Assembly (NCBI GenBank): GCA_963769885.1
Contig: CAVYNH010000004.1
Location: forward strand, 1 to 64,000
From: Methanobacteriota archaeon
Lineage (GTDB): Archaea > Thermoplasmatota > E2 > DHVEG-1
Direction: 5' to 3'
Length of the DNA stretch: 64,000 nt
This document shows positions 11,265-40,087 of this stretch, piece by piece. How positions within the stretch are numbered: the stretch's first letter is position 1; every line of letters begins with the position of its first letter. Both the position numbers and the translations under genes were made by a program. The notes beneath the pieces are model-generated. The model was not told where the DNA came from. It saw only the letters and a program-made list of their open reading frames with translations, and searched no databases.

Positions 11265-11314
11265 AGGTTGAAAAGCTTTATCTTATTCGTCTAAATAACG
11301 CTGTTGGTCAGCCT

Positions 11315-11545
11315 ATGGTGGATGAAGGGTATATCCTGGCGAACAAGTTCCGCCGCGCGATCTTCGACGAATTGGTCAGCGGCGAGCACGACATCCGCCG
11401 GATCGCCAAGAAGCACCGCATCATCCCACGGGTGGCACAGAAGGTCGTGGACGAGTTCGAGGCCGAGGAACTGGTGACCAAGCAGGGACCCTTCTACACC
11501 TTCACCGAGAAGGGCAACAAACTGGTCCATACCATGTACCGCTAG
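11315..11545 (+). CDS. Small winged-helix protein
   Basis: 76 aa with an HTH-wing pattern ending YTFTEKG; first gene of the ribK-polX-ligA run. Confidence 0.7.
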   Translation: MVDEGYILANKFRRAIFDELVSGEHDIRRIAKKHRIIPRVAQKVVDEFEAEELVTKQGPFYTFTEKGNKLVHTMYR

Positions 11546-11557
11546 AGGCCACAGACC

Positions 11558-23030: not shown

Positions 23031-26000
23031 TTAGGATTCCTTCGGAGGCCCCGGCGAAATCACATACCCGAGTCGCCGCCGACGCCACCGCGCCCACCGC
23101 GCCAAGATCAACGGCAAGATGAAAATCGAGGTCAAAATCGCATACAACAGCGTCACCGCCGTAATCAACCCAAACTGCTGCTGCGGCGGAATCGGCGCAA
23201 ACAACAAGATCCCGAACCCAAAGATCGAGCTGACCGCAGCAATCGACACCCCACTGCCCGTCCGGGAGATCGCCTCAATCACCGCCTGATCGATATCACC
23301 AGTCCGATCCACCACCAACCGGAACCGCTCCGTGATGTACACCGCATAATCAATCCCTACCCCGACGGTGATGCTCGTCACCGTCACCGTTAGCACATTC
23401 AACGTAAACCCAAAGAAATACATCGTCCCCAACACCCAGATCATCGACAGTGACACCGGAATCATTGCCACCAATCCCAACGTCGGCCGACGATAGATCA
23501 CAACCAACATAATCGCCGCCAGCAGGAAACAAATCCCCGTCGACATCAACTGACTTTCAGTCAACGACGTGACAATATTGTAAGTAATGAGGTCACCTCC
23601 GGTCACAACCGCCGTCGCCGATTCATAATCCACCACATCCCCATTCAAATCCGACTGAAGTACCTTGTATTCCGCTAGCATGTCCTTACTCTGCGGCAGG
23701 GTAATATACACACGAACAACCGTTGCCGTAAACGAATCCTCACTCCGATACAAGATACTCCGCGTATCACTCCCATACGCATTACTATCATAGAGATACG
23801 AATAGAACCCGGCAACATCCGAATCATTCTGAGGAATCCCCGTGGCGGTATTGACATGAAAGACACCCGCCAAGGAAGCATTATCCGCCAACGCCCTCTG
23901 CATGATGCTGTAAATATTCGTCGTTTTCGCGGACCCATCCGGGTTACGAGTCACATAATGGTCATCCTGGAGCCTCAACTGGGTCTGCGCGACCCCGTTC
24001 AACGCCTCAACCGTCGCAACCTTCCCCTCTATGAGAAGATACGCCTGGTCTTGACTGGCGAACGGGAAGTCCGTGGAGATCTTATTCAACTCCTGCAGCG
24101 CCTTGTTCTCCTGTGGAATGAACGAAGAAAGGCTGAAGCCAGTACTCAACTGCGACACCCCCACAACCATGACCAGAGAAATAGCGATAGCGACCATGAA
24201 GACGGCTTTGTCATGATGCAGGAGGAACCCGGCTATCTTCTTCAACTGAGTCTGAATCGAGACATCAGAGGCCTTTTTTAACGGATATGACTTTGTTCGA
24301 TCAGTGAGATACCGAGAAGCCATCAAGAACGTCATGGAAATGATGAACGTATACGAAATCCCCATCGCGAGGAACAAGCCGAAATTCCGGATGGGGGGGA
24401 TGGTCGCACTAAGGAAGGAGATGAAGGCAACAAAGGTCGTCGCCCATGCTAAGAATATCGCGATCCCGATCTCCTTAATCGACAAGATAATAGCAGCCCC
24501 CGCACTATTCCCCTTCTGCCGCTCAATCTTGTAATTAAAAAGGAGATTAACAGAGGTACTCCACCCCAAGACCGATGTTCAATGGTAGGATAGCGACCGC
24601 GAGAATGTTAAAAGGGATACGAAGCCAAGCCATCGTACCGAACAACCAGATTGTGGACAGCATGAAGACGACGACCGGGAGGAAGACGTAGGATGGTCGG
24701 CGGAAGGCAAGGAAGAGAATGATGACAATGATAATGAAAATTAGCGGGGCGATGACCATGTTCGCATCCATGGCGACCTTGTTCACCTCGGTTGAGACGA
24801 TGTCCGATCCCGTGACAGAGGTGCGGAGTTGCGGATACAGCCTGCTGTTGTTCTGAACCAACCCCGTGATCTCATTAAACCTCCGGTCAATCTCAGAAGA
24901 TGAGTTGGTTGCGTTGAGGAAGAGGATAGCGATAGACTCAGTTGCACGAGTTGCGTTCGTAGTGTTGCGGGGGAAAAAGGTGAGGATGTTATTGCGAAAT
25001 ATTGAGAATAGGCGTGGCAACAAGGGATAGACAAGGGAGACTGAGCCGGTGTCCGGTGCCCGGTCCGTAGGCTGCCAGCGACTCTGAATATCGGCGAGTG
25101 AGAACGTTGGAGGAAGTGAGAAACCGCTGCTGACGTTAGTCAGGTTCTGGAGGGCATCGGCAGGGAGACCGAGGTGTTCGAGAAGTCGGGTAACGAGGGA
25201 GCCGAGAAATCGTCGCTGCTGTAGCGTTTTTAGGGGGCCAAATAAGGTTGTTGTATTGAAGTAGATGTGACCGCCGATACGGAAGAAGACGAGGGGGGCA
25301 TAGGTGCGGCTACCGGCGGTGAAGTTAGTGAGTTTTGCGGGGAGCTTGTAGCCGTCGTAGGCAGGCGCAATGCCGTACTGTCGCAGTTCATTGCGGGAGA
25401 CAGTGAGAGTGATTTTGCCGGCCGCGCGGTCGAAGGAGATATTGGCGGTCTGGAGTTTAAGGGGGAAGATGATGGTCATATTGGGTGGGGTAACCCAGAG
25501 GTAGCCGGCGGCGATGTATTCGCGATGCATACCACGCGTAGTACGGAGGAGATTGAGGTTGTCAGCGAGGCTGTTCCCGAAGGTCCAGAGAGGGTTTTTT
25601 GGTTGCAGCCTGACGGAGAGTTGGTAGTTGAAGTCGAGGCCTGCGGCGGTGAAGTGGTTAGTAAAGGCAATGAACCATTCGAGGAGGCTGGTACGGGGGA
25701 CGGGGGGCTGAAGAGTGGTTGGGAGGGTGCTGAGATTGTAGACTTGGAGGATGAGGGTGAGGGTGGTGTTGGTGCTGGAAAGGCTGGCGGTTTTGATGTC
25801 AAGTATGTCGTTGCTGCGTGGTTTACCGAGGCGGGGGTTCGTGTCGGTGGGCTCGTTGGGGTCTGTGAGAAGGGTGAGGTTGGTGGGGGAGGGAATGAGG
25901 ATGTCGGAGAGGGCGGTGGCGATTTCTTCGTCGGTGCAATTGCCGAGGGTCTTGTTGAAGTCGAGTTGGCAGGCGGCGTCGATGAGAGCGGCGATGCTAA

Positions 26001-26313
26001 CTGTGGTGTTGACGTAAGGTCGGGTGGAGATGGTGTGTTCGAGATAGTATTGTTGACGGAGGATTTGTGGGGTGAGTAGGCTTGAGTTGTCGATGGTGCT
26101 GGTGTGTAGGAGAAGAAGTCGTTGGGTGGAGCCGAAGTAGGCGGTGATGCGTGTGTTGGCGTTGGTCTGGGGGGTGTCGGGGGCGAAGTCGCTGAAGTTG
26201 GTTCGGAATTCTAAGGTGGGGAGGGCACTGGCGAGGATAATGGTGACAACGATGACTGGGGCGATGATAAGCCATGGCTTCCGGGTGATGAATCGTCCGA
26301 GTTGGGTGAGCAT
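23031..26313 (-). CDS. MMPL/RND-family (HAE3-like) transporter, with apparent +1 frameshift at ~24555
   Basis: Two MMPL repeats with GLGVEY and GVGIDY motifs and large extracellular loops. Removing one C gives GVEYSVNLLFNY and joins 24547-26313 with 23031-24569. Confidence 0.88.
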
Positions 26314-26451
26314 CGTGGTCCTCTGCTGTCGAAAGCCACGAGAACAGGAGCGTTCACGGGGTCTTCCCCCGCTTCTATATGAATGGAAATATATTAATTT
26401 TTGTATGAGAAAGGCATCGTAGCGAGGGAGGGAAAAGAAGGAGGGGTGCGG

Positions 26452-27174
26452 TTAGACTTGGTCTGCTTCGAAGTGGGCGTAGATCCAACCTTGGTGCAGG
26501 CCCATGGAGTCGATGGTGGTGGTGACCTCGATCTCGATTTGGACCCAGACAAAGTCGGAGAGATTGGAGGTGGCGTTGGTTTCGTTGCGTGTCCAGCGGA
26601 CGTTGGCGGTGGGGTCCCAGGGTGTGGGAATCGAGTGGTTGACCCGGTCGGAGACGTTGCTGCACATGTCGCTCGCATTCCGGTTGCCGGGGGCAAGTGT
26701 CCAGGCGGAGGTATTGCCCGAGTGGACGATGGTACCGTTGTTGTACATGAGGACGCTGGTGTTGTCGGTGAGGGTGCTGTTGGCGTTGGCGTCGCGGTCG
26801 CCGTGCAGCCAGATCTTCATGCAGGTCCAGTTGGCGGAGGAGACGTTGAAGTAGGTGATGTTGACGGGGTAATTTTCTTCGTTGACGATGCCAAAGGCGG
26901 CGGAGTAGTAGTTTTTTTGTTCCATGGTGAAGTTGCCGAAGGCGAGTCGGAGGACGACGTAGCTGGTGTTGGAGCCGGCGACGCGCAGGAGCCTGACGTT
27001 GTCGGAGGCGTTGTCGGAGCCGATGAGGCGGATGTTGGCGTTGGAGGGGTGGACGATGGTGAAGTCATAGCTGACGCGGGAGACGGCGAACTGGGTGGCA
27101 ATGACCATGGTACAAGTTATGAGGAGAAGTCCAAGGAGGAAATATCGTTTGTTAATGCGGTGGTGGTGTGACAT
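26452..27174 (-). CDS. Hypothetical secreted/membrane-anchored protein
   Basis: N-terminal TM/signal, beta-rich, many N-x-S/T sequons; directly upstream of the MMPL gene. Confidence 0.75.
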   Translation of the reverse strand: MSHHHRINKRYFLLGLLLITCTMVIATQFAVSRVSYDFTIVHPSNANIRLIGSDNASDNVRLLRVAGSNTSYVVLRLAFGNFTMEQKNYYSAAFGIVNEENYPVNITYFNVSSANWTCMKIWLHGDRDANANSTLTDNTSVLMYNNGTIVHSGNTSAWTLAPGNRNASDMCSNVSDRVNHSIPTPWDPTANVRWTRNETNATSNLSDFVWVQIEIEVTTTIDSMGLHQGWIYAHFEADQV

Positions 27175-27276
27175 GGTTGACGCATGATAACCTTTGGCAG
27201 ACTCGTTACTTAAAGCTTCAGTGGAAAAATGTCAGACCGCAAAAACGCACGCTTCCATGGAAAAGAGTAAATTATA

Positions 27277-28182
27277 TTAAGGAAGGAGCCCGGTGTCGCG
27301 CACGAGCCGGGGGATGATCGTTTCCCAGAACAAGGCGGTGATGTGGATGCCGTGGACGCCGCGGAGCCCTTTGAGGGACTCGATGGTTTCGACTGCGAGC
27401 CGGTATCCCTCCTCCTCTGGGTGTGTTGCCTGTGTGATCCTCTTGTACACCGCGTCCGGGACGTCCGTGCCCGGCACATGGTACTTCATGCGCTCCGCCA
27501 TCTTCACGGATTTCAACGGGGTGATCCCGGCGAGGATCCGCGCTTTCGAGTCTAGTCCACAGTCGTGGACGGCGTCGACCCAGCGGGTGAATCGCTCAAG
27601 GTCGAAGACGCTTTGGGTCTGGAAGAAACAGGCGCCCGCGTCTATCTTCTTCTCCATTCGTAGTAGTTGAAGATCTAGGGGGTCGCTGAAGGGGTTCGTG
27701 GCTGCTCCGAGGCAGAGGCGTGGGCAGGGGTGGCTGAGGCGGTCACCGCTTTGGAACAGGCCGTTCGTGGTCATCCCTGAGATGATTTGGAGGAGTTGGA
27801 TGGAGTCGATGTCAAAGACGCCTTTTGCCTCGGGGTGGTTGCCGAAGCTGGGGGAGTCGCCGGTGAGGCAGAGGATGTTGCGGACGCCGAGTGCGGCCGC
27901 GCCGAGGACGTCGCTTTGCAGTCCGATGCGGTTGCGGTCCCGGCAGGTCATCTGCATAATCGGTTCCATCCCCATCTCGAGGAGGAGGACGCTGCCGGCC
28001 AGGCTGGACATCCGGGTCACCGCGGTCTGGTTATCCGTAATGTTGAAGGCGACGGCGGAGCCGCGTAGGAGCCTGGCTTTCTGTCGGATTTTTTCAGGGT
28101 CGCAGTCTTTGGGCGGTCCGACCTCCGCGGTCACCACGAATTTCCCGGTGGCGAGGGCGTTGGCGAGGGTGCTGATGGTCAC
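27277..28182 (-). CDS. metF: Methylenetetrahydrofolate reductase MetF
   Basis: VTAEVGPPK, NITDNQ, TCRDRNRIGLQ, LTGD and AGA.FFQTQ motifs. Confidence 0.92.
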   Translation of the reverse strand: MTISTLANALATGKFVVTAEVGPPKDCDPEKIRQKARLLRGSAVAFNITDNQTAVTRMSSLAGSVLLLEMGMEPIMQMTCRDRNRIGLQSDVLGAAALGVRNILCLTGDSPSFGNHPEAKGVFDIDSIQLLQIISGMTTNGLFQSGDRLSHPCPRLCLGAATNPFSDPLDLQLLRMEKKIDAGACFFQTQSVFDLERFTRWVDAVHDCGLDSKARILAGITPLKSVKMAERMKYHVPGTDVPDAVYKRITQATHPEEEGYRLAVETIESLKGLRGVHGIHITALFWETIIPRLVRDTGLLP

Positions 28183-28817
28183 CGGTTCACGCTCCGTTCA
28201 GAGGCGTGTGACCAGTTTTTCGGCTTGTGTGTTTTTCGTAGGAGGTCGAGTTTGTGTTGCGCTTTAAGTTGTTGGTAGATCTGATCCCAAACGCAGGGGG
28301 TCTGGGGGTCGACTTCGCATTTCCCGTTGGTGATACCGCCGCAGGGGCCGTTGAGCATGGATTTTGGGCAGCGGGCGACAGGGCAGAGGCCGCCGAACTC
28401 GTCGAGGAGGCAGTCGCCGCAGAGGCTGCAGCGTTTCTCGAAGACACCATGGCGGATGACTTCGCCGACGAAGAGGGCGTCCGTCCCGCTTATGACTTGT
28501 ATGTCGGGGTAGAGTTCGTGGACGGTCTGGACGCCGCTGCCGCAGGCCATGACCAGAAGAGATTTGGCTTGGGTCAGCTGTTGGCTGACGTCGCTGAGGA
28601 GTCGCTTTGATTGGAGCAGATGGCAGGCGGGGTCCAGAACGAGAGAGCCTGTGACAGTGATGTGATGGTCAGAAAGGGCTTGGGAAAGAGTGGCGAGGTC
28701 GTCTTTGCCGCCGGTACCGCAGAGGGTGGCGCACTCGCTGCATCCCACGAGGAAGACGGGGCCATCCCTGATCTTCTCCAAGATCTCCTCAAGACGTTTC
28801 TGCCGAGTGATAATCAT
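28179..28817 (-). CDS. metV: MetV (Fe-S/Zn subunit of methylene-THF reductase)
   Basis: GC..CAT.C..GG, ACGSGVQ, CSLCGDC, CPVARCPKSMLNGPCGG and CEV....CVW motifs; overlaps the metF start. Confidence 0.88.
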   Translation of the reverse strand: MIITRQKRLEEILEKIRDGPVFLVGCSECATLCGTGGKDDLATLSQALSDHHITVTGSLVLDPACHLLQSKRLLSDVSQQLTQAKSLLVMACGSGVQTVHELYPDIQVISGTDALFVGEVIRHGVFEKRCSLCGDCLLDEFGGLCPVARCPKSMLNGPCGGITNGKCEVDPQTPCVWDQIYQQLKAQHKLDLLRKTHKPKNWSHASERSVNR

Positions 28818-28871
28818 GGCGGGAAACCATGTGGTAGCGGTAATTAAAGATTTGGCATGAGGGAGACATGT

Positions 28872-30269
28872 TCAATTTTTCTGATTTTGGGAAAGGATGT
28901 TGTTGAGGTCGAGTGCAGAGTTAATCGCGCAGTTGATGCCGATTCCCTTTGCCTTCACGCAATCGCCGATGAGATAGAGGTTTTTGACTGGCGTTTGAAT
29001 CTCCGGCTTGGAGTTGATGATGGTTTTAGCGACGCCGTCAAGATGCCATGTCGCCGGGTAGACCGCCCAGTGGAGGTCCGCGGCGTATGTCGGGATGATC
29101 CGTCGGAGGTTCTTATCCAATGCCTCTCTGAGCTTGAGCAGCATCTCGGCGTTGGTGGCCTCCTTTGGGGAGCAGATGATGTAGGCCTGAACGAGATAAT
29201 GGTCTGGGGCGGAGAGGCCGGCCTGGGACGCTGCGGTCATGAAATCGATCATGCCTGCGGCGTCATTGCCGTCGACACCGAGGTTACGTTCGATGAACAC
29301 GAAGGTTTTCCCGAGGAGATCCTGCTTGATTCGTTTCAAGGCGTAATAAGCGCATAGGCTGCCGGTTCCCTGGAGGCTCTTCATCGTGGTCACATAACCT
29401 GCGGGTAACAGGGTTGGATCTGCAATAGTGAACAGGTTTTGGACCAAGATATCCGAGGCGATGATATCGAAATCCTGGTGTTGGCCTGCAGCCTCGATGC
29501 CCTCAGCCTGCTGGTTAGTGATACGGATTTTTGTCACGGGGGTATTGAGATGGATGTGTCCTCCGTGTTTCTCGACGTACGCCGCGAGGGTCTGGCAGAT
29601 ATTGATGAGGCCGTGTTGTGGGTAGAAGACGCCAGCAAGCCTCATGTCTTTTTGGGTCCGTAAGACCTCGCCGGAGGAGATGAGGTCAAGGTTGTTGATG
29701 GTGGTGATGAGCCGTGGATTCAGCTCCAGGACGTCCTTCATCTTTCCTTTTCCGTATTGCTGGATCGTCTTTGACATCGGGACGGGGTCCAGTTCTTTCA
29801 AGGTTTTTTCCCCGGAGCTCAATAGTCTGATGATGTTACGTAGCATGCCGAGCTTGTCCATGGTGGTTACGAAGTTCCCGTAGTGGCTGTTCTTCTGTTC
29901 GTATAAGCGTGAATGATAAATGGTGATGTTGTTGAAGAACTCCGGGATGGTCGTTTGGAGTTTTGCGATGATGCCGCCGCCGATCAGGTGGAATCCAACG
30001 TCAAGGGTGTAGCCGTCCATGAGATGTTGCGTGAAGATGTCTTTCAGCGGGGGATCGGAGAAGACGATAGCGGTGTTGAACCGTTTGAGGGTCTGCGTGT
30101 AGGACTCCATGGTTTGGGTCGACATGGAGATAGATTGGGCCCGTCCACCGACGGTCGCCTCTTTTTCATAAATGTCCACGCTGTAACCATGTTGGATGAG
30201 CAGTGCGCCGGCAGTGAGTCCGCCGATGCCTGCGCCGATGATGCATACGCGTCGTTTCTGCATAATCAA
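28872..30269 (-). CDS. FAD-dependent oxidoreductase, phytoene desaturase (CrtI/COG1233)-like
   Basis: IIGAGIGGL..G, EK...VGGR, D.GFH and C-terminal NLYLIGD motifs. Confidence 0.8.
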   Translation of the reverse strand: MIMQKRRVCIIGAGIGGLTAGALLIQHGYSVDIYEKEATVGGRAQSISMSTQTMESYTQTLKRFNTAIVFSDPPLKDIFTQHLMDGYTLDVGFHLIGGGIIAKLQTTIPEFFNNITIYHSRLYEQKNSHYGNFVTTMDKLGMLRNIIRLLSSGEKTLKELDPVPMSKTIQQYGKGKMKDVLELNPRLITTINNLDLISSGEVLRTQKDMRLAGVFYPQHGLINICQTLAAYVEKHGGHIHLNTPVTKIRITNQQAEGIEAAGQHQDFDIIASDILVQNLFTIADPTLLPAGYVTTMKSLQGTGSLCAYYALKRIKQDLLGKTFVFIERNLGVDGNDAAGMIDFMTAASQAGLSAPDHYLVQAYIICSPKEATNAEMLLKLREALDKNLRRIIPTYAADLHWAVYPATWHLDGVAKTIINSKPEIQTPVKNLYLIGDCVKAKGIGINCAINSALDLNNILSQNQKN

Positions 30270-30278
30270 TAGGTCTCG

Positions 30279-31496: not shown

Positions 31497-31610
31497 AATA
31501 TTCGAAAATCTCCTTGGTTGTCTCCTGGATATGCATCGGTTCTTGCGCCTCGGAGGTGGTTAGACTTTGAACGATATATGAAGCTTTTCCTAAAGGGAAT
31601 ACGGCCGTGG

Positions 31611-32552: not shown

Positions 32553-32617
32553 GGCGTCTGAGAATAGGGAGCAGTATTTATTACTTAATGTTTTCTCCCC
32601 CTAGAAAAAGGGGGGGG

Positions 32618-33295
32618 TTATGCAAGGCCGTAGAACTCGAAGAGTCGGACGATGCCGCCGTGGACCAGGAAGATCACTGACCCGGTGATGGCCAAGGAGA
32701 AGATTGCGAGGAGGACTTTCCTGTTGTCGGAGAACCGGGAGCGTTCGATAGAAATGGTTGCGAAGGTGATGAAGAACAGCAGGAGGAACCAGCCGATGAA
32801 GTTGAGGACCGGGACGTCGTAGTATTTCAGTCCGGTGAGGGATCCTTTCCAGATCCACCAGTGGTTATGGTGCGCGATCGGGTCCTCTAAGAGGTCCAGG
32901 CAGACGCCCGAGGCGCCTGTGATGAGTGAGACTAGAATGATTTGCAAGCGGTTCGTCTTTTCATAGAGGTTGTAGACGACGTGCTTGCCGATGTTCATGA
33001 ACAGGAAGAAGTTGACGCTCCAGGCGACGATGATGCTCAGGGGGACGGCACCGCCGACGGCGGAGATGTAGATGAGATAGCCGTTATAGTAGTAGCGTCC
33101 GCCGGCGACCCCCGCGGACTCGATGAACATGGTGGTGAGGATGATAGGGAGGAAATAAATCAGGGTTTTATGGACCCCGAATCGTTTGTACGAGTAGTAG
33201 AGGAAGACCAGCCAGAGGACGGCGCATAGCACGACAAAGGGGGCCAGCAGCTGGGTCCCCTCGCCGAAATGAGGGTTGAACTCGAGGAGACTCAT
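32618..33295 (-). CDS. CruF-like membrane hydratase (carotenoid biosynthesis protein family)
   Basis: ESAGV..G.Y.Y, VPL.I..AW, D...DP.A....WW.W and Y.VP..NFIGW motifs. Confidence 0.8.
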   Translation of the reverse strand: MSLLEFNPHFGEGTQLLAPFVVLCAVLWLVFLYYSYKRFGVHKTLIYFLPIILTTMFIESAGVAGGRYYYNGYLIYISAVGGAVPLSIIVAWSVNFFLFMNIGKHVVYNLYEKTNRLQIILVSLITGASGVCLDLLEDPIAHHNHWWIWKGSLTGLKYYDVPVLNFIGWFLLLFFITFATISIERSRFSDNRKVLLAIFSLAITGSVIFLVHGGIVRLFEFYGLA

Positions 33296-33633
33296 GGGCT
33301 CGTCACCTGCGTTTTCTGCTTGCGCCTTCGGGTGAGAATCAGGAGCAGCAAGGGGATGAGTGCGATGAAACCATTCACAATAGTCGGGATGAGGAAGTCG
33401 GACAAGACCCCGATCACCACAAGGACAACCCAGGCAGCCAGATAGAAGATGAAGAGACTATTGATGCTGAAGTTGCCGATTCTTTTATAATCCTCTTGGA
33501 GGTTTTCTTCCTCGATAGGGGTGTCTTTTTTTCCGGTGAAATACAGGATCATGGTGATGATAAACCCGCCGAGTAAGACAGGAACGAAGAACGCGAGGCG
33601 GTCGACGATATACTGGATGACGGTGTTTTCCAT
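33292..33633 (-). CDS. Small membrane protein
   Basis: Three hydrophobic segments; ATGA overlap with the CruF-like gene. Confidence 0.7.
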   Translation of the reverse strand: MENTVIQYIVDRLAFFVPVLLGGFIITMILYFTGKKDTPIEEENLQEDYKRIGNFSINSLFIFYLAAWVVLVVIGVLSDFLIPTIVNGFIALIPLLLLILTRRRKQKTQVTSP

Positions 33634-33842
33634 GAGGGCTGACCGGGGGAGGGCATCCTCATAACCACTTAAGAAGGTTCCTGTTTTTCCTCCTAGGTGG
33701 CCGCCTTCGCCGTCATCTTTGCCCTCATCCTCTTTCCTGGCTTCGGGTTTCTTCAGTCAAACCTCGTCTTGCACGGGACCTTTCTGCACTGGAAGACTAT
33801 GTAGGAAAACCTTCAAGTATCCCTGACGGGTTGCTGACCCCC

Positions 33843-34847
33843 ATGAAACGGGCAGTTGGGCTGGCACGCCTAATACGGCTACCAGGTATTGGCGCACTCG
33901 GAACCCCCCCTCTGATCGGGGCACTCACCGTCGGAGTCTTCGATATCCCAAGCCTCATCATCCTCTTCGCCATCGGCGCCTTGGCCGGTATCTTCGGCTT
34001 CATCCTCAATGATTTCGTGGACGCCGAACTCGACCGACTCGTCCCCGAACTCCAGGAAAAGCCCTTAGTGAGTGGTGTAATCCAACGCAAGACCGCGGTT
34101 TTCATCTGCGCCCTCTGCGCGATCTTCGCCTTCTTCCTCCTGATCATACTCTATCACGGACAGATTGTGACAACAGGAAGAGTCTATGCCGCGCTGATGC
34201 TCGTCCTCGCCGGCATCCTCGGCAGCATCTACGACATGTACGGCAAGAAGCTGCCCGGCTCCGATTTCCTCGTCTCCATCTCCATGGCCTTCCTCGTCCT
34301 CCTCGGCGCGCTCAGCTTCGGCACCCCCAACGTCCTCACCTGGATCGTCTTTGTCCTCACCTTCAATCAATCCCTGCACATGAACGCCATTGAAGGCGGC
34401 ATCAAAGACGCGGACCACGACTACAAGATGGGCGTCCTTAATATCGCCTACATCGCGGGCGTCCGCGTCGATGGCGAGAAGCTCACCATCCCCTGGCCAT
34501 TTAAAGCCTTCGGCCTCGGCATCCGACTCACCTCCGCCTTCCTCTTCTTTACCCCCTTCCTCTTCTTCGGCTTTGAGTACCCGATCTGGGTCCTCGTCCT
34601 GCTCGCCGTTGCAACCGCCATCGTCCTCTTCTTCAGCTTCCGCCTTGTCATGATGAACCGGTTCGACCGCGACCGGATCCGCAAATACATCGGGCTCCAA
34701 TCCTTCCTCCGCTACAGCCTCGTCCCTATCATGCTCTATCCCGTCATCGGCTGGCTGGCGATGCTCATCCTGATCGTGTACCCCATCGTCTGGTACATCG
34801 CGTTCACCCCGCTCGTCAAAGAAAAACTCTTCAAACCCAGGATGTGA
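33843..34847 (+). CDS. UbiA-family prenyltransferase 2
   Basis: NDFVDAELD...KPLVSG, YDMYGKK and GGIKDADHD motifs; multi-TM. Confidence 0.88.
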   Translation: MKRAVGLARLIRLPGIGALGTPPLIGALTVGVFDIPSLIILFAIGALAGIFGFILNDFVDAELDRLVPELQEKPLVSGVIQRKTAVFICALCAIFAFFLLIILYHGQIVTTGRVYAALMLVLAGILGSIYDMYGKKLPGSDFLVSISMAFLVLLGALSFGTPNVLTWIVFVLTFNQSLHMNAIEGGIKDADHDYKMGVLNIAYIAGVRVDGEKLTIPWPFKAFGLGIRLTSAFLFFTPFLFFGFEYPIWVLVLLAVATAIVLFFSFRLVMMNRFDRDRIRKYIGLQSFLRYSLVPIMLYPVIGWLAMLILIVYPIVWYIAFTPLVKEKLFKPRM

Positions 34848-35029
34848 GACCCCGGACCACCACCCCAAGCCCCAGTCTCCCCTTGACTGTCCTTTCTCCC
34901 GGAGAAAACGACAAATTATTTATATAGTGAGCGGGCATGCGGTATACGAAAGCCTGGTTAACGCACGACGTTCCCAAGACCTTCCCACACCCAACCATCG
35001 GGGTGTAACCGGGCAGGGGAGACACTCAC

Positions 35030-35998
35030 GTGACTGTTAAACTGACCATGAAGCAACCCTATAGCCGCACGCACATCCTCTCCAAGAAAATCCGCGCATA
35101 CATCGACCTGCTCCGGCCATTCACCCTCATCGCCCCCTTTTTCGTCGCCATGTTCATCATGCTCGCCAGCCTCGTCTCCCACTACCCGTTTGACAAATTC
35201 CCCTCGAACTGGTGGATTACCATCGGCCAGGCGAGCCTGACCCTCGCCTTCCTCAACGCTGCAAGCAACTCCCTCAACCAATCCACCGACGTCGAATCCG
35301 ACAAAATCTCCAAACCCTATCGTCCCATCCCCAAAGGCCTCGTGGAAAAAGACGAAGCCCAGAGCATCGCCTACATCCTCTACCTCTTTGCGCTTCTGCG
35401 AGCCGTCACCATCAACCTCTGGTTCGGCGTCTTCGTCTTCCTCATCATGATCTTCACGGTCGTCTACAGCCTCCCGCCCCGCATGAAACGCTTCCTCTTC
35501 CTCAACCAAACCTGGATCGCCATCCCCCGCGGCCTCTTCGCCGTCCTCGCCAGCTGGAGCGTCTTCAACGACCCCTTCGCCCCCGAACCGCTCCTAATCG
35601 GCATCATCGCCATGGTTTTCTTCATGGGCGCCATGACCACCAAGGACATCGTCGACTGCGAAGCCGACCGAAAAACCGGCACCCGCACCCTCATCAATAC
35701 CTACGGTCTGAAAAAAGCCGCCTACATCAGCCTCCCCTTCCTCATCATCCCCTTCGCCAGCATCCCCGTCTTCATCCATTACGGCATCTTCCAGCCCTAC
35801 TTCCTCCCCCTCACCATCCTCGTCATACCCGCTTTCTACATCTTCTACCTCATGCTTAAACAACACCAGAATCAGACCATGGAGAATGTCTCCGCCTGGT
35901 CCCTCATGTACATCACCTACCTCATCTACGCCGTCAGCTTCACCACGCTGATCATCCTCGGGGAACTCGGATACGTCTCCTTCTTCCCCCATCTCTAA
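35030..35998 (+). CDS. UbiA-family prenyltransferase 3 (NQxxD type)
   Basis: LLRPFTL, NQSTDVESDKISKPYRPIP, YSLPPRMK and KDIVDCEAD...G..T motifs. Confidence 0.9.
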   Translation: MTVKLTMKQPYSRTHILSKKIRAYIDLLRPFTLIAPFFVAMFIMLASLVSHYPFDKFPSNWWITIGQASLTLAFLNAASNSLNQSTDVESDKISKPYRPIPKGLVEKDEAQSIAYILYLFALLRAVTINLWFGVFVFLIMIFTVVYSLPPRMKRFLFLNQTWIAIPRGLFAVLASWSVFNDPFAPEPLLIGIIAMVFFMGAMTTKDIVDCEADRKTGTRTLINTYGLKKAAYISLPFLIIPFASIPVFIHYGIFQPYFLPLTILVIPAFYIFYLMLKQHQNQTMENVSAWSLMYITYLIYAVSFTTLIILGELGYVSFFPHL

Positions 35999-36012
35999 CC
36001 CCTTGAGGTCTC

Positions 36013-39000
36013 ATGCCCACACTCCGCGCCGCCGGCATGGATGCTGCCCAGCGAGGACACAACCGACACGCCCTCCTGGCCATCACCCTCGCCCTGGCCC
36101 TCCTCCTCCCCTGCCTCACTGCCAGGCCTCTTCTCGCTGCAGTCGACACTATCCCCTCCTGGAACGCCCAGTTCCCCAGCAGCCAAGAACTCATCATGCC
36201 CTACAACACCAGCCTACCCCGCGCCAAAAACCAGGCCATCGACCTCCCCATCACCTTCCACGGCCCCTGCTGGACCACCAACCCGACCCAGACCTCCGTC
36301 CGCGTCGCCTGCTGGAACGGCACCGGCTGGACCGAACTCCCCTCCCAAATCTATAACCTCCAGACCGCCAACGACACCAGCCACATCAAAGCCTGCAACC
36401 TCGTCTTCCTCATCCCCGACACCGCGAACGGCCACGAACGCTACTACATCCACTACAGCGCCAACCAAACCCCCCCACCCGACTACCCCGACCACCTCAG
36501 CATCGTCGACGCCACCTACCAGTTCGCCCCCATCAAGGAAATCTCCGCCGAAGCCCACTTCTACGGCATCGTCGAAGACGGCTACAGCATCTACGGCATC
36601 GGCGAAGAAGGCAAAGTACTCGACCGCGCCTGCGCCCAAGTCGTCGTCAAACAACACAAAGGAGCCACCACCTTCGACGCCCTCAACTCCGACCAATTCG
36701 TCAGCTATGCCTTCTCCTACTACTACGGCACCGACGAAAAAGACGAAAGCAGCAGCGACCAGGTCTTCCTCAGCAAACAAATCCTCGTCGACGGCCCCCT
36801 CATGGTCACCGTTAAAATCAGCAGCCAATCCAGCCTTGCCGACGTCCGAACCACCAACGAATACCGCTACTACTACACCCCCGGCGACGACAAACGCATC
36901 TACGTCCACGCCAAACACGAAATGCTCAAAGCCGCCACCGTCAAAGGCCTCGACGACATCGACGGCCGCTACGGCAGCATCATCTCAGTAAAAGCCCGCA
37001 GCAGCACCATCCCCAGCCTCAACATGGGCGACATCAACCCCCTCCTCGACTTCAACAGCACCACCAAACCCGTCGAAGAATACCAAATGGACCTCAACCC
37101 CGAAACCACCGACCGCGAATGGATCATCCCCTACCAAGACAACGCCGACCTCGGCCCCGACGCCTGGCTCTCCTACGGCGACGGCATCATCGGCCGCGCC
37201 AGCGCCGTCATCTTCGCCACCAACACCGGTCTCATCACCCAAGGCACCAACGAAAACGACGGCATCCAACTCAAAGTCTGCGAAAAACAATACTTCGACT
37301 TCCTCGGCACCCAAGTCGACTACGCCAGCCTCAACTTCGGCCGTAACTCCTACGACCCCACCAAAGGCCACGACATCACCATCCCCGCCAACCTCATCGT
37401 CCAATTCGACGCCGAAACCTTCTACACCTCCACCGGCGGCTACACCGCCACCCAACAAGAAGCCCACCTCTTCCAATCCCTCATCCGCAACCACACCCAA
37501 AACACCGCTCCCCCCACCAACGCCACCCGCTACAACCTCACCGTCAGCGCCTACTTCGGCGGCACCTTCCTCACATTTCCCTGGCTCGCCGAACACCCCA
37601 CCGTCACCATGCAACTCTACCAAAACGATACCTATCTCACTACCATCCAAGCCAACGGCACGACCATCCTTAGCAGCGCCACCGCCACCTTCCCCAACAT
37701 CACCGCTGGCCTATACATCGCCAAAGTCTACCTCAAAATTAGCAACACCCGCTTCCTCATCGGCGCCGCCGTCATCCCTGTCAACAAAAGCCTTACCACT
37801 CAAATCATCTGCACCTGGGAACGTGCCATCAAAGTCACCGCCCTAAACCAATACAACCACGGCATCCCTAACGTCCTCGTTCACCTCCAGAACAAGGACG
37901 GCCTCATCTTCGATTGCAACACCACTGACACCACCGGCAGCATCACCCTCCATGCCCCCTACAACCCCAACGATCCATACAAAGTCACGGCGTTCTACAA
38001 ACAACGCCAAATCTTTAACACAACCCTCCCTGCAACCCTCCAATATGCCGCTGCGAGCATCACCCTCGCCCTCTACAACTTCACTATAAAACTCGTCGAC
38101 GCCTACAACCTCCCCCCCGCCGTCGACGCCAGCCCACAACTCCTCCTTCAAAACGATAACCAGACTATCCCGATTTTCCCGGATATTGTCAATCAGAACT
38201 ATTATACTTTTACCAATCTCTTCGCTGGCAACTACACCGCCCAAATCCTTTACCGTAACCACATCGACTCCTCCTCTCTTACCATCCCTGAAAACGGCCT
38301 CGTTATCCAGATGATGTTCACCCAGACCTACCCGGCTACCTTTGACCTCTACGACGTGCGAGGAAACCCGATCACCGCCAGCGACGTCCTCCTCAGAGTC
38401 ATGCGCAACAGCACACTAGTCTACAGCTCATTCAAACACAGCATCTCGCTGCCCCCCGCCGAGTACGAAATCCTCTTCTACTCCGAGAACCGTCTCATTG
38501 CATCGAAAACCCTGGACCTCACCAGTGAACACCATAGCAGCATCGTCACTACCCTGGACCCTCAGCTGCCTCCCTTCACTATTGCGGCCAGCATTGCCGC
38601 CTTCGCGGCAGCCGCCATCCTCGCCGCACTCCGCAAGATCCGTCTACGCACTCTCTTTCTCGCCCTCGCCTTCTCCCTTATCCTCCTCGCGATTGTCCAG
38701 CCCTGGTGGGAGCTTGATGGTGCTAGGACGAATCCGTCGGCTACCCGGCATATCGATATGTTCATTCAACCGGGCGTCCTCATGGAGACACTCACAAGCT
38801 CGATGGTCACTCAACGAACGATATCCGAGATGCCCCCGCAGTTCATCTCGTTCCTCGGCCTCCTCATCCTTATACTCATGATCGCCTGTGGTATGGCAGT
38901 AGCAACAATCGGCATCTCATTGCATAAAAAACCGTGGTACAGCCTGATCATCCAGCCCGTTCTCATTTGTCTTCTGATAGGCATCGCGGTTGTATACGTC

Positions 39001-39228
39001 TATGGAACTTCGATTCTCACGAACATCGGCATCGGATCACTCCAAGGTTCGGGACCTTTGATCGTGAGCGTGGGCAACGTCAATTTGAATATCCCCTCAT
39101 CCTGGGGGCTAAGCAGCGGCTTCTATCTTCTCATCCTAGCCGCTGTTGCGACAGCGATAGCATTCTCGCTTACCTTGCTTGAATGGCGAAAGAAGAGACG
39201 ATTGTTAGAAGAGCGAACCCGACCGTGA
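36013..39228 (+). CDS. Large membrane-anchored extracellular protein (1071 aa), unknown function
   Basis: Signal/TM, DUF2341-like N-terminal segment, repeated beta-sandwich-like segments with many sequons, about 5 C-terminal TM helices. Confidence 0.8.
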   Translation: MPTLRAAGMDAAQRGHNRHALLAITLALALLLPCLTARPLLAAVDTIPSWNAQFPSSQELIMPYNTSLPRAKNQAIDLPITFHGPCWTTNPTQTSVRVACWNGTGWTELPSQIYNLQTANDTSHIKACNLVFLIPDTANGHERYYIHYSANQTPPPDYPDHLSIVDATYQFAPIKEISAEAHFYGIVEDGYSIYGIGEEGKVLDRACAQVVVKQHKGATTFDALNSDQFVSYAFSYYYGTDEKDESSSDQVFLSKQILVDGPLMVTVKISSQSSLADVRTTNEYRYYYTPGDDKRIYVHAKHEMLKAATVKGLDDIDGRYGSIISVKARSSTIPSLNMGDINPLLDFNSTTKPVEEYQMDLNPETTDREWIIPYQDNADLGPDAWLSYGDGIIGRASAVIFATNTGLITQGTNENDGIQLKVCEKQYFDFLGTQVDYASLNFGRNSYDPTKGHDITIPANLIVQFDAETFYTSTGGYTATQQEAHLFQSLIRNHTQNTAPPTNATRYNLTVSAYFGGTFLTFPWLAEHPTVTMQLYQNDTYLTTIQANGTTILSSATATFPNITAGLYIAKVYLKISNTRFLIGAAVIPVNKSLTTQIICTWERAIKVTALNQYNHGIPNVLVHLQNKDGLIFDCNTTDTTGSITLHAPYNPNDPYKVTAFYKQRQIFNTTLPATLQYAAASITLALYNFTIKLVDAYNLPPAVDASPQLLLQNDNQTIPIFPDIVNQNYYTFTNLFAGNYTAQILYRNHIDSSSLTIPENGLVIQMMFTQTYPATFDLYDVRGNPITASDVLLRVMRNSTLVYSSFKHSISLPPAEYEILFYSENRLIASKTLDLTSEHHSSIVTTLDPQLPPFTIAASIAAFAAAAILAALRKIRLRTLFLALAFSLILLAIVQPWWELDGARTNPSATRHIDMFIQPGVLMETLTSSMVTQRTISEMPPQFISFLGLLILILMIACGMAVATIGISLHKKPWYSLIIQPVLICLLIGIAVVYVYGTSILTNIGIGSLQGSGPLIVSVGNVNLNIPSSWGLSSGFYLLILAAVATAIAFSLTLLEWRKKRRLLEERTRP

Positions 39229-40087
39229 AGAGAAAATAGGTCAGGTACATCGCCATCCATGCACTCGTATTTTCCAATGATCGACGCCGATCATCACGTA
39301 CAAGAAGAACAGCAATCAAAACCCCGCAGAGCATAAGTCCCGCCAAGACGAGGAACGCCTGCGGGAGGACTCCAACGATGACCAGGGGTATGACTGCGGC
39401 GAAGGAGGAGACCATGATGATGGCGGAGAGCATCGCTGTCTTGCGCACGCCCAGGGCGTTGCAGAGAGTGTGCGTCCCTACGGAGCGGTCTGCCGCTGTA
39501 TCCAGGACGTCTTTGGTCGCCGTGCCACCGAAGAGGAACACCGACGCGATGCCGCCGATAGCCAGGGGAAGGCTCTGGAACGGGTTTGCGAAGACACTCC
39601 ATGATGCTAAAATCCCGAACAACCCCCGGGGTAGAGCCACCCAGAGTTGGTTGATGGCCAGGTGCTGTTTCATGCGGGGAGGCAGCGAATAAGTGATTGT
39701 GAAGAGGGCGATGATGAACACGAACCCAGCGAAGAGGACGTGGACGAAGAACGCTATAGATAAGGACAGGAAATATAAGAGGAGGGAAATCGTGTACGCT
39801 TCCCGAAGCGTGATGAGCTTTTTTGGTAGGGGTCGATAGGGCTTCGAGAGGCAGTCTTCCTCGTAGTCTGCTGCTTGGTTCAGCGCATTGGAGGCGCCGT
39901 TGAGGAGGGCGAGGCTGAGACTGGCCGGCAACATCGCGCCGAGAAGAGAGAGAATGGGGAGGGAGTGGGCGGCGGCGTAGACGTAGCTGGCAGCCATGAC
40001 GCTGATGCTGACGATGAGTGGGGCGAGTAGGGTGAATGGCCGTAGGAGAAGCAGGTACTTGTGGAGGGTACTGAAGGTCTTCCTCAT
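39170..40087 (-). CDS. UbiA-family prenyltransferase 4 (NQxxD type, paralog of 35030-35998)
   Basis: LLRPFTL, NQAADYEEDCLSKPYRPLP, YSLPPRMK, PRGLF.ILASWSVF and KDVLDTAAD motifs. Confidence 0.9.
   Translation of the reverse strand: MRKTFSTLHKYLLLLRPFTLLAPLIVSISVMAASYVYAAAHSLPILSLLGAMLPASLSLALLNGASNALNQAADYEEDCLSKPYRPLPKKLITLREAYTISLLLYFLSLSIAFFVHVLFAGFVFIIALFTITYSLPPRMKQHLAINQLWVALPRGLFGILASWSVFANPFQSLPLAIGGIASVFLFGGTATKDVLDTAADRSVGTHTLCNALGVRKTAMLSAIIMVSSFAAVIPLVIVGVLPQAFLVLAGLMLCGVLIAVLLVRDDRRRSLENTSAWMAMYLTYFLFTVGFALLTIVSSFAIQAR

Follow-up and report, generated by a model that had tools for sequence, protein, structure and literature searches.

What would a cell make with four UbiA-family prenyltransferases encoded almost side by side? 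The question is raised by a contig from a member of the uncultured Thermoplasmata, of which a stretch of 64,000 nucleotides (the window) was analysed. An earlier note, made from the letters alone, listed at 28872-40087 four UbiA-family genes, a geranylgeranyl reductase (GGR), a CrtI-like flavoprotein, a CruF-like protein, a small membrane protein and a 1071-aa membrane-anchored protein. Pfam, which assigned families to genes of the 23031-40087 region (PF01040 for each UbiA), agrees with this list. The island probably builds a modified membrane isoprenoid. The best explanation is that the source genome has a clade-specific island for isoprenoid tailoring, in a local and rearranged copy.

Grouping and conservation of the island

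Prenyltransferase genes could, of course, be neighbours by accident. The 2.09-Mb genome has about 16 UbiA genes, four of them inside 8.5 kb, where about 0.065 would be expected; by our own calculation, the Poisson P(>=4) is about 7e-7. Chance alone would not give such a grouping. The earlier note took archaeal UbiA genes to be few and scattered, which fails for the source family, where each genome holds 6-16 of them along with about 8 GGR-like genes.

Synteny was followed in 20 relatives' loci and in 80 species-level loci from Thermoplasmata MAGs. Per-gene counts use the loci with enough flank: 68 for UbiA2, 64 for UbiA3, 40 for the surface protein with UbiA4, and 51 for accessory genes anchored on the CrtI-like gene. 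Across the 80 loci a core is kept, in the order UbiA2, CrtI-like, UbiA3, and only these three are near-universal among the island genes. Two optional modules join them, the CruF-like/UbiA1/GGR genes and the pair of 1071-aa and UbiA4 genes. The island is real and co-conserved clade-wide in uncultured sediment Thermoplasmata (MBG-D/Thermoprofundales type). Its catalytic motifs are intact, and in every UbiA subfamily the Asp-rich motifs are kept across 14-61 orthologs.

Genes in so modular and frequently rearranged an island do not have to share one product. One product that is prenylated several times, hydrated and in part saturated, as the earlier note proposed, is at most a possibility, the CruF-like/UbiA1/GGR module being found in about a quarter of loci. 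One might go further, and see no single pathway here but a recombination-prone hot spot gathering paralogous lipid genes (UbiA, GGR, hydratases) of an expanded family. Each gene would then have a separate membrane-lipid or polyprenol task, with true coupling only between UbiA2 and the CrtI-like gene. Family genomes rich in UbiA and GGR-like genes are consistent with this, as is a gene count that differs among loci, from 2 up to 8 or more, with parts of the island inverted or swapped; in the congener of the source genome, the CruF..CrtI block sits on another contig. A plainly unrelated gene, that of the surface protein, is also interleaved, as are the housekeeping genes for LonB, NMNAT and MetF. 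However, in 48 of 64 loci (75%), spread over many genera, UbiA3 comes directly after the CrtI-like gene, the re-insertion point of accessory genes is always the same, between UbiA2' and the CrtI-like gene, and that spot recruits two unrelated hydratase families. This is the pattern expected under functional coupling, and it makes the hot spot a rather unlikely account of the island.

The core pair and the other prenyltransferases

At the centre of a shared pathway would stand UbiA2, a membrane prenyltransferase, and the peripheral FAD protein encoded by the CrtI-like gene, acting together. UbiA2 (33831-34847, forward strand; PF01040, 72.9 bits) is a divergent member of its family. The CrtI-like protein (28872-30269, reverse strand; PF01593, 51.3 bits over residues 15-453) belongs to the CrtI/amine-oxidase superfamily. 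Among 68 loci of relatives, 40 have UbiA2 ending no more than 350 nt upstream of the CrtI-like gene (median gap about 8 nt), and 50 have it within 1.7 kb. Such spacing is short enough that translation of the two may be coupled. Here, an inversion has broken the arrangement, leaving UbiA2 on the opposite strand, 3.6 kb off.

UbiA2 found no match at E<=1 in a PDB sequence search. It falls in a U2 clade with 100% support, within a lineage-specific U2 superclade, and its motifs NDxxDxxxD, YxxYGKK and KDADHD are kept in 52 orthologs. The CrtI-like protein has an N-terminal FAD motif (GxGxxG...E...GGR), scores 57 against the 238 cut-off of TIGR02734 crtI_fam, and has as nearest PDB entries to its profile 3KA7 (an M. 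mazei oxidoreductase, 1.6e-18), 3NRN and 4REP. The gene is single-copy and near-universal across four related families (f1, 31/35; f2, 2/4; f4, 11/11; f9, 9/9), and no ortholog was found in about 240 other genomes from more than 40 other families of the phylum.

The cut-offs for DGGGPS, MenA, UbiA, CyoE, ChlG and HPT are beyond the scores of all four UbiA proteins, and no housekeeping clade in the tree contains any of them. The earlier note had tied its proposal to co-conservation of the genes and to the four UbiA proteins not all being housekeeping enzymes; on both points the proposal stands. The housekeeping DGGGPS role appears to have its own candidate, a separate and better one at C6:354412-355320 (PRK12884, 237 bits). 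The source genome has only one GGGPS, and nearly all of 41 related genomes searched retain one top-scoring UbiA, about 300 aa long.

After the core pair, UbiA3 (35030-35998, forward strand; PF01040, 126.1 bits) would supply a second prenyltransferase, of ChlG/HPT-like type. UbiA4 (39170-40087, reverse strand; PF01040, 117.6 bits) is its paralog at about 44% identity, pairs with it in most genera of the source family, and keeps its motifs in 19 orthologs. The motifs of the two (HPT-type NQxxDxxxD and ChlG/HPT-type YS(L)PPRMK, in UbiA3 YSLPPRMK) and their place in the tree, where the U3/U4 clade is sister to BchG with support of 84/86, are nearer ChlG/HPT than DGGGPS. On this hint, the acceptor may be a carboxylate or an aromatic compound rather than a lipid chain.

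The island might instead make a prenylated non-lipid cofactor, perhaps a quinone- or phenazine-like membrane redox carrier or a prenyl-esterified tetrapyrrole. In that case, UbiA3 and UbiA4 would join the chain to a carboxylate or an aromatic ring, with the GGR saturating this side chain and the flavoprotein acting on the head group or on the chain. UbiA enzymes reportedly group according to the type of acceptor (Hemmi 2004, cited in PMC9385802). The model scores point the same way: UbiA3 has 78 bits for HPT and 76 for ChlG, UbiA4 has 55 and 67, and BchP-ChlP is the second-best model of the GGR, at 173. These values lie, however, far under the family cut-offs of 226, 313 and 343, respectively. 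UbiA3 has 80 bits (cut-off 296) for DGGGPS, and the nearest PDB entry is still DGGGPS (6M31, for UbiA3 at 2.9e-14; ChlG 9SAS has 1.9e-9). Head-group biosynthesis genes occur in or near the island in 0 of 80 loci. Further, the most conserved pair is UbiA2 with the CrtI-like gene, not UbiA3 with UbiA4, and hydratases of the CruF-like and CrtC/AttH-like types act on isoprene double bonds. A cofactor is, on balance, an unlikely product.

The surface protein and the transporter

The gene for the 1071-aa protein (36013-39228, forward strand) starts 14 nt past UbiA3, and UbiA4 is convergent with it, overlaps its end, and runs co-directionally with the housekeeping genes for LonB and NMN adenylyltransferase. 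The protein has a signal helix, an Ig/CnaB-like ectodomain and five C-terminal TM helices. In an AF2 model (mean pLDDT 82), the ectodomain is beta-rich, with tandem Ig/CnaB-like sandwiches; Foldseek matched the model to pilins, adhesins, SdrD, Cna B repeats and the S-layer protein SlaB, and returned no enzyme. The 1071-aa protein is thus an Ig/CnaB-like surface protein and no evident enzyme of the pathway.

Could UbiA3 and UbiA4 act on the protein whose gene they flank, adding a lipid anchor or a lipid-linked modification? The 1071-aa gene and UbiA4 are both present in 18 of 40 loci (about 45%), from at least 7 genera, and one of the two paralogs elsewhere in the source genome lies 2.6 kb from another UbiA gene (C6:404-410k). 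But the third paralog has no UbiA neighbour, UbiA3 and UbiA4 occur apart and without the surface-protein gene in many genomes, and the protein has five TM helices of its own. We know of no UbiA-family enzyme that modifies proteins. The idea is quite improbable.

The earlier note also had the product exported by an MMPL protein. This gene (23031-26313, reverse strand) is of the HAE3-type RND, HpnN-like kind, with PF03176 on both of its open reading frames and matches to TIGR00921 and HpnN. In the source assembly, a 1-nt frameshift near 24556-24569 leaves two frames, 24547-26313 and 23031-24569, and no bridging contig was found among public contigs; in relatives it is a single frame of about 1120 aa. 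Between it and the isoprenoid genes stand MetF (27277-28182; PF02219, 133.6 bits) and a MetV-like DUF5981 protein (28179-28817; PF12225, 119.7 bits), both on the reverse strand. These methylene-THF reductase genes are not isoprenoid genes. The intervening pair, the frameshift and the wealth of UbiA genes in the family had escaped the earlier note. In 19 of 80 loci, and in three different layouts, the transporter gene and the CrtI-like gene are no more than 8 kb apart; the wider neighbourhood of the transporter gene is one of housekeeping genes in conserved order. Thus, of a biosynthesis-and-export cluster, the co-conserved isoprenoid genes stand; the link to export is weak, and membership of the transporter in the pathway is doubtful. 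The same doubt applies to a secreted-looking protein of 240 aa, rich in N-glycosylation sequons (26452-27174, reverse strand), which has no Pfam or NCBIfam match and whose gene adjoins the MMPL gene in some relatives.

Accessory chemistry and known pathways

The remaining genes, all on the reverse strand, would add a prenyltransferase, a double-bond hydratase and a GGR-type double-bond reductase as optional modules. UbiA1 (31611-32552; PF01040, 108.6 bits) forms its own clade and occurs in 11 of 51 loci. Its best NCBIfam model is PRK12884 (125, cut-off 269) and its nearest PDB entry DGGGPS 6M31 (1.7e-15); orthologs 57-83% identical are found in G001, from the same genus, and in 6 of 23 other family genera searched, two further genera having only distant matches (32-34%). 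The CruF-like membrane protein, a putative isoprenoid double-bond hydratase (32618-33295; PF04240 "Caroten_synth", 59.6 bits, cut-off 25), occurs in 13 of 51. Upstream of it, in an arrangement conserved in 10 loci, is a 113-aa protein with about three TM helices and only a weak DUF4870 match (33292-33633), whose gene shares, at its stop, 4 nt with the start of the CruF-like gene. The GGR-family flavoprotein (30279-31496; TIGR02032, 216.5 bits, cut-off 158.8) occurs in 12 of 51 and ends 9 nt before the CrtI-like gene; it is far below the cut-offs of the lipid-GGR equivalogs and has about 8 paralogs in the source genome.

Of the 80 loci, 28 have a CrtC/AttH-like hydratase in the island; most of these lack a CruF-like gene in the available stretch, and at least 4 (L071, L073, L077, L125) carry both. 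In the source genome, this gene is 22 kb from the island. Since one or both hydratase types are recruited, hydration looks to be part of the chemistry.

In the reading that we prefer, and hold with about even confidence, end-group chemistry in the style of carotenoid pathways is applied to a membrane isoprenoid derived from GGPP, other than a phytoene-derived carotenoid. The steps would comprise prenyl transfer, flavin-dependent desaturation or hydration, hydration to tertiary alcohols, and partial saturation; their order, the substrate and a product common to all modules are what we infer. The substrate is a guess, because no member of the island has a characterised ortholog. The likeliest candidates are the cell's own ether lipids, with their unsaturated chains as the target, or a polyprenyl lipid in free form.

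An obvious comparison is with bacterioruberin-like C45/C50 carotenoids, where a LyeJ-type elongase, a CrtD-type desaturase and a CruF hydratase work on lycopene. The same three protein families share a neighbourhood here, the genuine cluster of Halocatena salina is ordered crtD-lyeJ-cruF-crtB, and 8 of 24 family genomes have a phytoene/squalene synthase gene (PF00494). That gene, however, tracks neither the island nor its CruF/UbiA1 module, and neither it nor a true CrtI was found in the source genome (92% complete) or its congener (91%). Without detected phytoene synthase in the genus, a bacterioruberin-like carotenoid is unlikely. The proteins differ as well. By BLASTP, only a 43-aa FAD motif aligns with genuine CrtD, genuine LyeJ gives E>=0.18 with all four UbiA proteins (5.3 with UbiA1) and lies outside all four of their clades, and Halocatena CruF matches at 3.5e-4 over 37 aa. 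Scores for the CruF_Halo (26, cut-off 300), CrtD and CrtI models are far below cut-off. The island thus appears not to be a carotenoid pathway; for this genus, that very improbable reading is already largely refuted.

For tailoring of membrane isoprenoids, precedent exists: Has, of the CrtI family, hydrates unsaturated archaeol, and the AttH-like Hgs makes hydroxy-GDGT (bioRxiv 10.1101/2025.10.20.683597; PMC10821996).

Gene content and setting of the island

Pfam and NCBIfam scans bore out the gene inventory that the earlier note had read from the sequence alone. On the minus strand, the genes for a CrtI/amine-oxidase-like flavoprotein (28872-30269), a protein of the geranylgeranyl reductase (GGR) family (30279-31496), the prenyltransferase UbiA1 (31611-32552), a CruF-like protein of family PF04240 (32618-33295), and a membrane protein of 113 amino acids (33292-33633) form one block. 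UbiA2 (33831-34847) lies on the plus strand, divergent from this block, and is followed there by UbiA3 (35030-35998) and by the gene for a protein of 1071 amino acids (36013-39228). UbiA4 (39170-40087, minus strand) is convergent on this last gene, and lies downstream of genes for LonB and an archaeal NMN adenylyltransferase. Four UbiA genes in 8.5 kb, where about 0.065 would be expected in a 2.09-Mb genome that holds about 16, are far above the genome-wide rate.

Two further minus-strand genes, absent from the inventory of the earlier note but recognized by Pfam/NCBIfam, encode MetF (27277-28182) and a MetV-like DUF5981 protein (28179-28817). These methylene-THF reductase genes separate the isoprenoid genes from the gene for an MMPL/RND exporter, found by Pfam and NCBIfam as two minus-strand ORFs (23031-24569 and 24547-26313). 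A secreted-looking protein of 240 amino acids (26452-27174, minus strand) is encoded between the exporter and MetF. A paralog of the secreted protein (42% identical) is encoded elsewhere in the same genome, at 333057-333755 of contig C6, with a polyprenyl synthase gene (C6:329373-330335) some 3 kb away.

Public sequencing runs that contain the window are freshwater-sediment and wetland metagenomes, and no RNA dataset is listed among those that cover 30000-39900. The congener is “Euryarchaeota archaeon AlinenSediments_bin-5223.”

Conservation of the island among relatives

Conservation was assessed from tblastn maps of 20 relatives' loci, 11 further stretches, and 80 species-level loci. All 80 of the loci found with a profile of the CrtI-like protein belong to metagenome-assembled genomes of uncultured Thermoplasmatota/Thermoplasmata, from freshwater, wetland, marine, and hydrothermal sediments. 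Across this sample, the island is modular, with a fixed core. In 40 of the 68 loci that have enough flank, the CrtI-like gene is preceded, at no more than 350 nt, by the end of a UbiA2 ortholog (45-61% identical), with a median gap of about 8 nt. At 50 of the 68, the ortholog is no farther off than 1.7 kb, a GGR gene usually being inserted between the two. In the most distant carriers (loci L126-L136; genomes G035 and G039 of the Thermoplasmata family f4), the UbiA2 and CrtI-like pair alone remains. This pair is the minimal, tightly spaced core of the island.

Around the core, the other genes differ in frequency. In 48 of 64 loci, UbiA3 is the next gene after the CrtI-like one, and a second paralog of the UbiA2 type (about 30% identity) stands ahead of the pair in 34 of 51. 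The surface protein (that is, a protein of the 1071-amino acid type) and UbiA4 come after, in 18/40 and 17/40 loci, respectively. The accessory genes are rarer, with the CruF-like gene in 13, UbiA1 in 11, and GGR in 12 of 51 loci.

The arrangement in the window is a derived one. In a relative (G023) and on contig C44 of the congener, the small protein, CruF-like, UbiA1, UbiA2, GGR, and CrtI-like genes follow one another in this order on one strand; UbiA3 comes directly after the CrtI-like gene in G023, and is on a separate contig (C9) in the congener. In the window, an inversion spans all genes from the small protein through the CrtI-like one, and UbiA2 has come to lie on the other strand. Identity to the congener's copy (L049:10983-11981) is only 56% for UbiA2, against 71-84% for the neighboring island genes, and the strand of UbiA2 is the opposite one. 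This suggests that UbiA2 alone was replaced or relocated.

In a sample of 301 genomes that spans the phylum, the CrtI-like ortholog is single-copy. It occurs in four families of one class (31/35, 2/4, 11/11, and 9/9 genomes), and was absent from the roughly 240 genomes sampled from more than 40 other families. With a fixed core across 80 loci and this distribution over four families, the alternative that these genes are not co-conserved therefore fails. The island is real, conserved, and uncharacterised. In one relative (locus L024, G023:C2), the CrtI-like gene at 10538-11923 contains an in-frame TAA stop.

The place of the exporter is less simple. Both halves match PF03176, TIGR00921 is matched at 69 and 176 bits, and the HpnN models match weakly; by these scores, the transporter is predicted to be an HAE3/HpnN-like RND protein. 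In this assembly, a one-base frameshift near 24556-24569 splits it into ORFs of 588 and 512 amino acids, while in relatives it is a single ORF of about 1120 (1128 in the congener). When 24200-24900 was compared with public contigs, none bridged the frameshift site, and the ends of two contigs from a single wetland run fall precisely on 24554/24555; an artefact and a real change are both possible.

The earlier note had the island's product exported by this protein. An MMPL ortholog does recur near the island: in 19/80 loci, no more than 8 kb separates it from the CrtI-like gene. Its placement takes three forms. It can be divergent and sit beyond MetV-MetF, or it can lie 5-8 kb downstream, beyond four genes of the opposite strand, among them one for an H+-pyrophosphatase; in one f4 genome, it is 2.3 kb downstream and convergent. 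Proximity in different arrangements argues for some link to the island. The link is weakened, however, by the surrounding epimerase, DeoC aldolase, Topo VI B, and eIF2-gamma genes, which indicate that gene order here is simply well conserved. MMPL relatives are also far more widespread than the island. An operon with the exporter directly downstream, considered for four loci, was rejected, as four opposite-strand housekeeping genes lie between. Export by this protein is possible, but not supported.

The prenyltransferases and their partner proteins

All four UbiA proteins pass PF01040, at 108.6, 72.9, 126.1, and 117.6 bits for UbiA1 to UbiA4, against a gathering cut-off of 34.2. All carry the Asp-rich motifs (N/D)xxxDxxxD and DxxxD together with YxxxxxK, and these catalytic motifs are conserved at 60-90% or more across the 14-61 orthologs of each subfamily. 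The third motif of UbiA2 is unusual, KDADHD.

None of the four, in contrast, reaches an NCBIfam equivalog cut-off for DGGGPS, MenA, UbiA, CyoE, MqnP, ChlG/BchG, HPT, EboC, or DPPR synthase. For DGGGPS, their best scores are 82, 22, 80, and 63 bits, where NF009521, NF009522, and NF009512 demand 296, 353, and 278. For MenA, the 4-HB enzyme UbiA, heme O synthase, and MqnP, the scores are at most 37 bits against cut-offs above 200. The ChlG (313), BchG (212), and HPT (226) cut-offs are likewise missed by UbiA3 (76, 75, and 78 bits) and by UbiA4 (67, 70, and 55 bits). The best DGGGPS candidate in the genome lies outside the island, at C6:354412-355320 (PRK12884, 237 bits; NF009521, 167 bits). One such top-scoring UbiA, of about 300 amino acids, is present in nearly all of 41 related genomes searched. 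The genome has one GGGPS.

Trees were built from the 15 intact UbiA paralogs of the window's own genome (G000) and the island orthologs. The references were E. coli UbiA, MenA, and CyoE, two plasmid-borne BchG, two haloarchaeal DGGGPS named by PGAP, and a genuine LyeJ, the tree that includes the last being built with a quick method. Three separate, strongly supported, lineage-specific clades emerge: UbiA1; a UbiA2 superclade that takes in five other G000 paralogs; and UbiA3 with UbiA4. These trees gave no supported grouping of the four with E. coli UbiA, MenA, or CyoE. The alternative that all four are ordinary housekeeping enzymes fails on the same clades and cut-offs.

The UbiA3/4 clade is sister to BchG with moderate support (84/86), although the long MenA branch intrudes. 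Both proteins have the HPT-type motif NQxxDxxxD and the ChlG/HPT-type motif YSLPPRMK. Together, tree and motifs point to kinship with the ChlG/HPT branch, whose cut-offs for membership both proteins miss.

Among solved structures, the M. jannaschii DGGGPS (6M31) is nearest to UbiA1, UbiA3, and UbiA4, followed by chlorophyll synthase, and UbiA2 had no PDB sequence match at E<=1. In the ESM Atlas, UbiA2 matches only clusters named “UbiA family,” and a search for longer homologs found no fused forms of it, which is weak evidence. In a set of 5.8 billion proteins, UbiA3 found only close relatives with generic automatic names. Plasmid searches with UbiA1 and UbiA3 returned only genes annotated as DGGGPS or ChlG, at 22-31% identity.

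Two split genes of related type were seen in the same genome. At C3:32349-34477 (L041), a weakly MenA-like UbiA gene adjoins a GGR paralog split over two frames, and at C7:74377-75424 (L043), another UbiA2-type gene is split in two. Like the exporter gene, these split genes may be pseudogenes or may reflect indel errors of a long-read assembly.

The N-terminus of the CrtI-like protein is canonical for FAD binding. The protein matches Amino_oxidase over its full length, and belongs to the wider amine-oxidase superfamily (PF01593, 51.3 bits against 19.8). It fails as a CrtI or CrtD, with 57 bits against the 238 of TIGR02734, and 47-61 bits with the CrtD/CrtID models. The best solved relatives of a profile built from 13 orthologs are 3KA7 from Methanosarcina mazei (1.6e-18) and then PF1083 from Pyrococcus. 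Both are uncharacterised archaeal oxidoreductases, and both rank above a carotenoid desaturase. The reductase is within the GGR family (TIGR02032, 216.5 bits against 158.8); its 129, 89, and 173 bits fall short of the lipid-GGR equivalogs (580-780) and of BchP/ChlP (343). The CruF-like protein is within the wider PF04240 (59.6 bits, cut-off 25), and scores only 26.4 bits with the CruF equivalog NF041333 (cut-off 300). A second PF04240 paralog in the genome (C4:139883-140551; L044:5883-6551) scores 91 bits with the Pfam model, above the island copy, and PF04240 homologs named “carotenoid biosynthesis protein” occur on plasmids of Vibrio, Legionella, and Bradyrhizobium.

A second, unrelated hydratase family appears in many relatives. 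These soluble CrtC/AttH-like proteins of about 330 amino acids, with the motif DDAFHGS...EWWYFDA, are encoded in one or two copies inside the island in 28/80 loci. Of 15 members, 14 give weak matches to PF07143, the N-terminal lipocalin domain of CrtC (best 6e-5); one member just passes its cut-off. The best structural relatives of their profile are weak matches, AttH (2ICH, E=0.004) and a CrtC-domain protein (7A0Q, E=0.086). The window has a homolog of 353 amino acids at 5780-6841 (minus strand; 30-37% identical; PF07143 weak, E=0.02), outside the island and 22 kb away. For most of these 28 loci, the stretch covered shows no CruF-like gene; at least four (L071, L073, L077, and L125) have both. 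Recruitment of two unrelated carotenoid-type hydratase families to one site gives the best indication that the island's chemistry may include the hydration of double bonds in isoprene units.

The 1071-amino acid protein, in turn, looks like no enzyme. An AlphaFold model made from 23 sequences (mean pLDDT 82) has a signal helix, a large beta-rich ectodomain with a run of Ig/CnaB-like sandwiches, and, at the C-terminus, five membrane helices with beta inserts. Foldseek matched it to pilins, adhesins, SdrD and Cna B repeats, and the Sulfolobus S-layer protein SlaB, with no enzyme among the matches. On this evidence, it is a surface protein. Its gene begins 14 nt after UbiA3, a linkage conserved in about 45% of loci. 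Elsewhere in the genome, a second UbiA paralog (C6:404056-404883) lies 2.6 kb from a surface-protein paralog (C6:407483-410626; 30% identical; L034), and a third surface-protein paralog (C7:386451-389573) has no UbiA neighbor.

A candidate chemistry and the systems it resembles

In its probable chemistry, the island most resembles the tailoring of carotenoid end groups, directed at a substrate that is not a carotenoid. Here, a UbiA would transfer a prenyl group onto an isoprenoid end group, the flavoprotein would modify the isoprenoid in a flavin-dependent step, and hydration would yield tertiary alcohols. A more specific proposal, which we hold to be rather unlikely, is that an undescribed class of archaeal membrane lipid is the product of the UbiA2/CrtI-like/UbiA3 operon and of the hydratases and reductase added to it, for example C5-prenyl-extended or branched ether-lipid or polyprenyl chains bearing tertiary hydroxyls. 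If so, carotenoid end-group chemistry would have been transplanted onto non-carotenoid lipids.

This would matter beyond one genome. Few archaea of anoxic sediments are as widespread as Thermoplasmata of the MBG-D/Thermoprofundales type; we know of no cultured member, and of no account of their lipids. In this clade, the island is near-universal; it is restricted to the clade and accompanied by an unusual expansion of UbiA genes. Most genomes of the window's family carry 6-16 of these, and neighboring families 0-6; one or two were counted in each of two poor assemblies of the family (64% and 74% complete). If the proposal holds, the lipid would be a diagnostic biomarker for these ubiquitous uncultured sediment archaea. 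The island gives a short list of candidate genes, with UbiA2, the CrtI-like gene, and UbiA3 first, and assignment of a product could tie orphan sedimentary isoprenoids to their source organism. The searchable literature yielded no description of the island, and no characterised ortholog of it was found. A paper on extended tetraethers (PMC13003381) names no genes and points to Altiarchaeota.

One close likeness is to the haloarchaeal bacterioruberin cluster, represented here by that of the Halocatena salina plasmid NZ_CP096020.1 (L144; crtI/D, prenyltransferase, cruF, and crtB). In both, a UbiA, a flavoprotein of the amine-oxidase/CrtI type, and a PF04240 membrane hydratase adjoin, and the same chemistry is implied. 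The island differs in having two to five UbiA genes rather than one, in its added GGR paralogs, and, in many relatives, in its CrtC/AttH-like hydratase. Nor did BLASTP find orthology to the Halocatena enzymes. CrtD matches the CrtI-like protein only in residues 8-50, the 43-residue FAD motif. LyeJ matches UbiA1, UbiA2, and UbiA4 at E=5.3, 2.3, and 0.18, with no listed match to UbiA3. Its best match, to UbiA2-type second paralogs (1e-5), is no better than its match to BchG, and in the tree it is a long branch outside all four UbiA clades. CruF matches the island's PF04240 protein at 3.5e-4 over 37 amino acids, and is closer to the second paralog (2e-11, same contig).

A C50 carotenoid pathway would also need its precursor enzymes. 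A phytoene/squalene synthase (PF00494) was looked for without success in G000 (92% complete) and in the congener (91%), where the unassembled part could hold one, and nothing in the genome passed the crtI_fam cut-off. A PF00494 homolog is present in eight of 24 family genomes (G002, G004, G005, G012, G015, G016, G017, and G018); these are on contigs other than the island's, and the carriers differ from the genomes with the CruF-like/UbiA1 module. Heliorhodopsin (PF18761) likewise gave no match, an uninformative result, as its control matched nowhere. A bacterioruberin pathway is therefore very unlikely in this genus, no PF00494 protein and no lycopene-forming desaturase having been found in these assemblies, and BLASTP having given no CrtD, LyeJ, or CruF orthology. 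Tailoring of a non-carotenoid substrate remains the preferred reading.

There are two other likenesses. With DGGGPS (MjDGGGPS, 6M31) and the ChlG/HPT branch, the island UbiAs share a fold family and three catalytic motifs, UbiA3/4 having the HPT/ChlG variants; they differ in scoring far below every curated cut-off and in forming lineage-specific clades. The Corynebacterium C50-carotenoid cluster carries an embedded mmpL gene, and HpnN is a hopanoid transporter. In these, as in the window, an RND/MMPL transporter lies near isoprenoid-lipid genes; the window differs in its intervening genes, in a proximity seen in about one-quarter of loci, and in the frameshift of the assembly.

A further comparison is with enzymes of archaeal lipids themselves. 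Has, of the CrtI family, is the hydroxyarchaeol synthase of M. acetivorans, and the AttH-like Hgs makes hydroxy-GDGT (bioRxiv 10.1101/2025.10.20.683597; PMC10821996). These are precedents for carotenoid-type enzymes that work on archaeal membrane lipids. Has, Hgs, and GGR are carotenoid-type families (CrtI-like, CrtC/AttH-like, and GGR) used anaerobically on the isoprenoid chains of such lipids, as those of the island may be. The likeness is set at the level of the protein family, with 3KA7 of M. mazei and the weak PF07143/AttH matches as indirect hints. No UbiA partner is reported for Has or Hgs, whereas the island couples its flavoprotein to a dedicated UbiA, which is unprecedented in those pathways. 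The island could thus extend the reuse of carotenoid-type enzymes in archaeal lipid tailoring to prenyl transfer.
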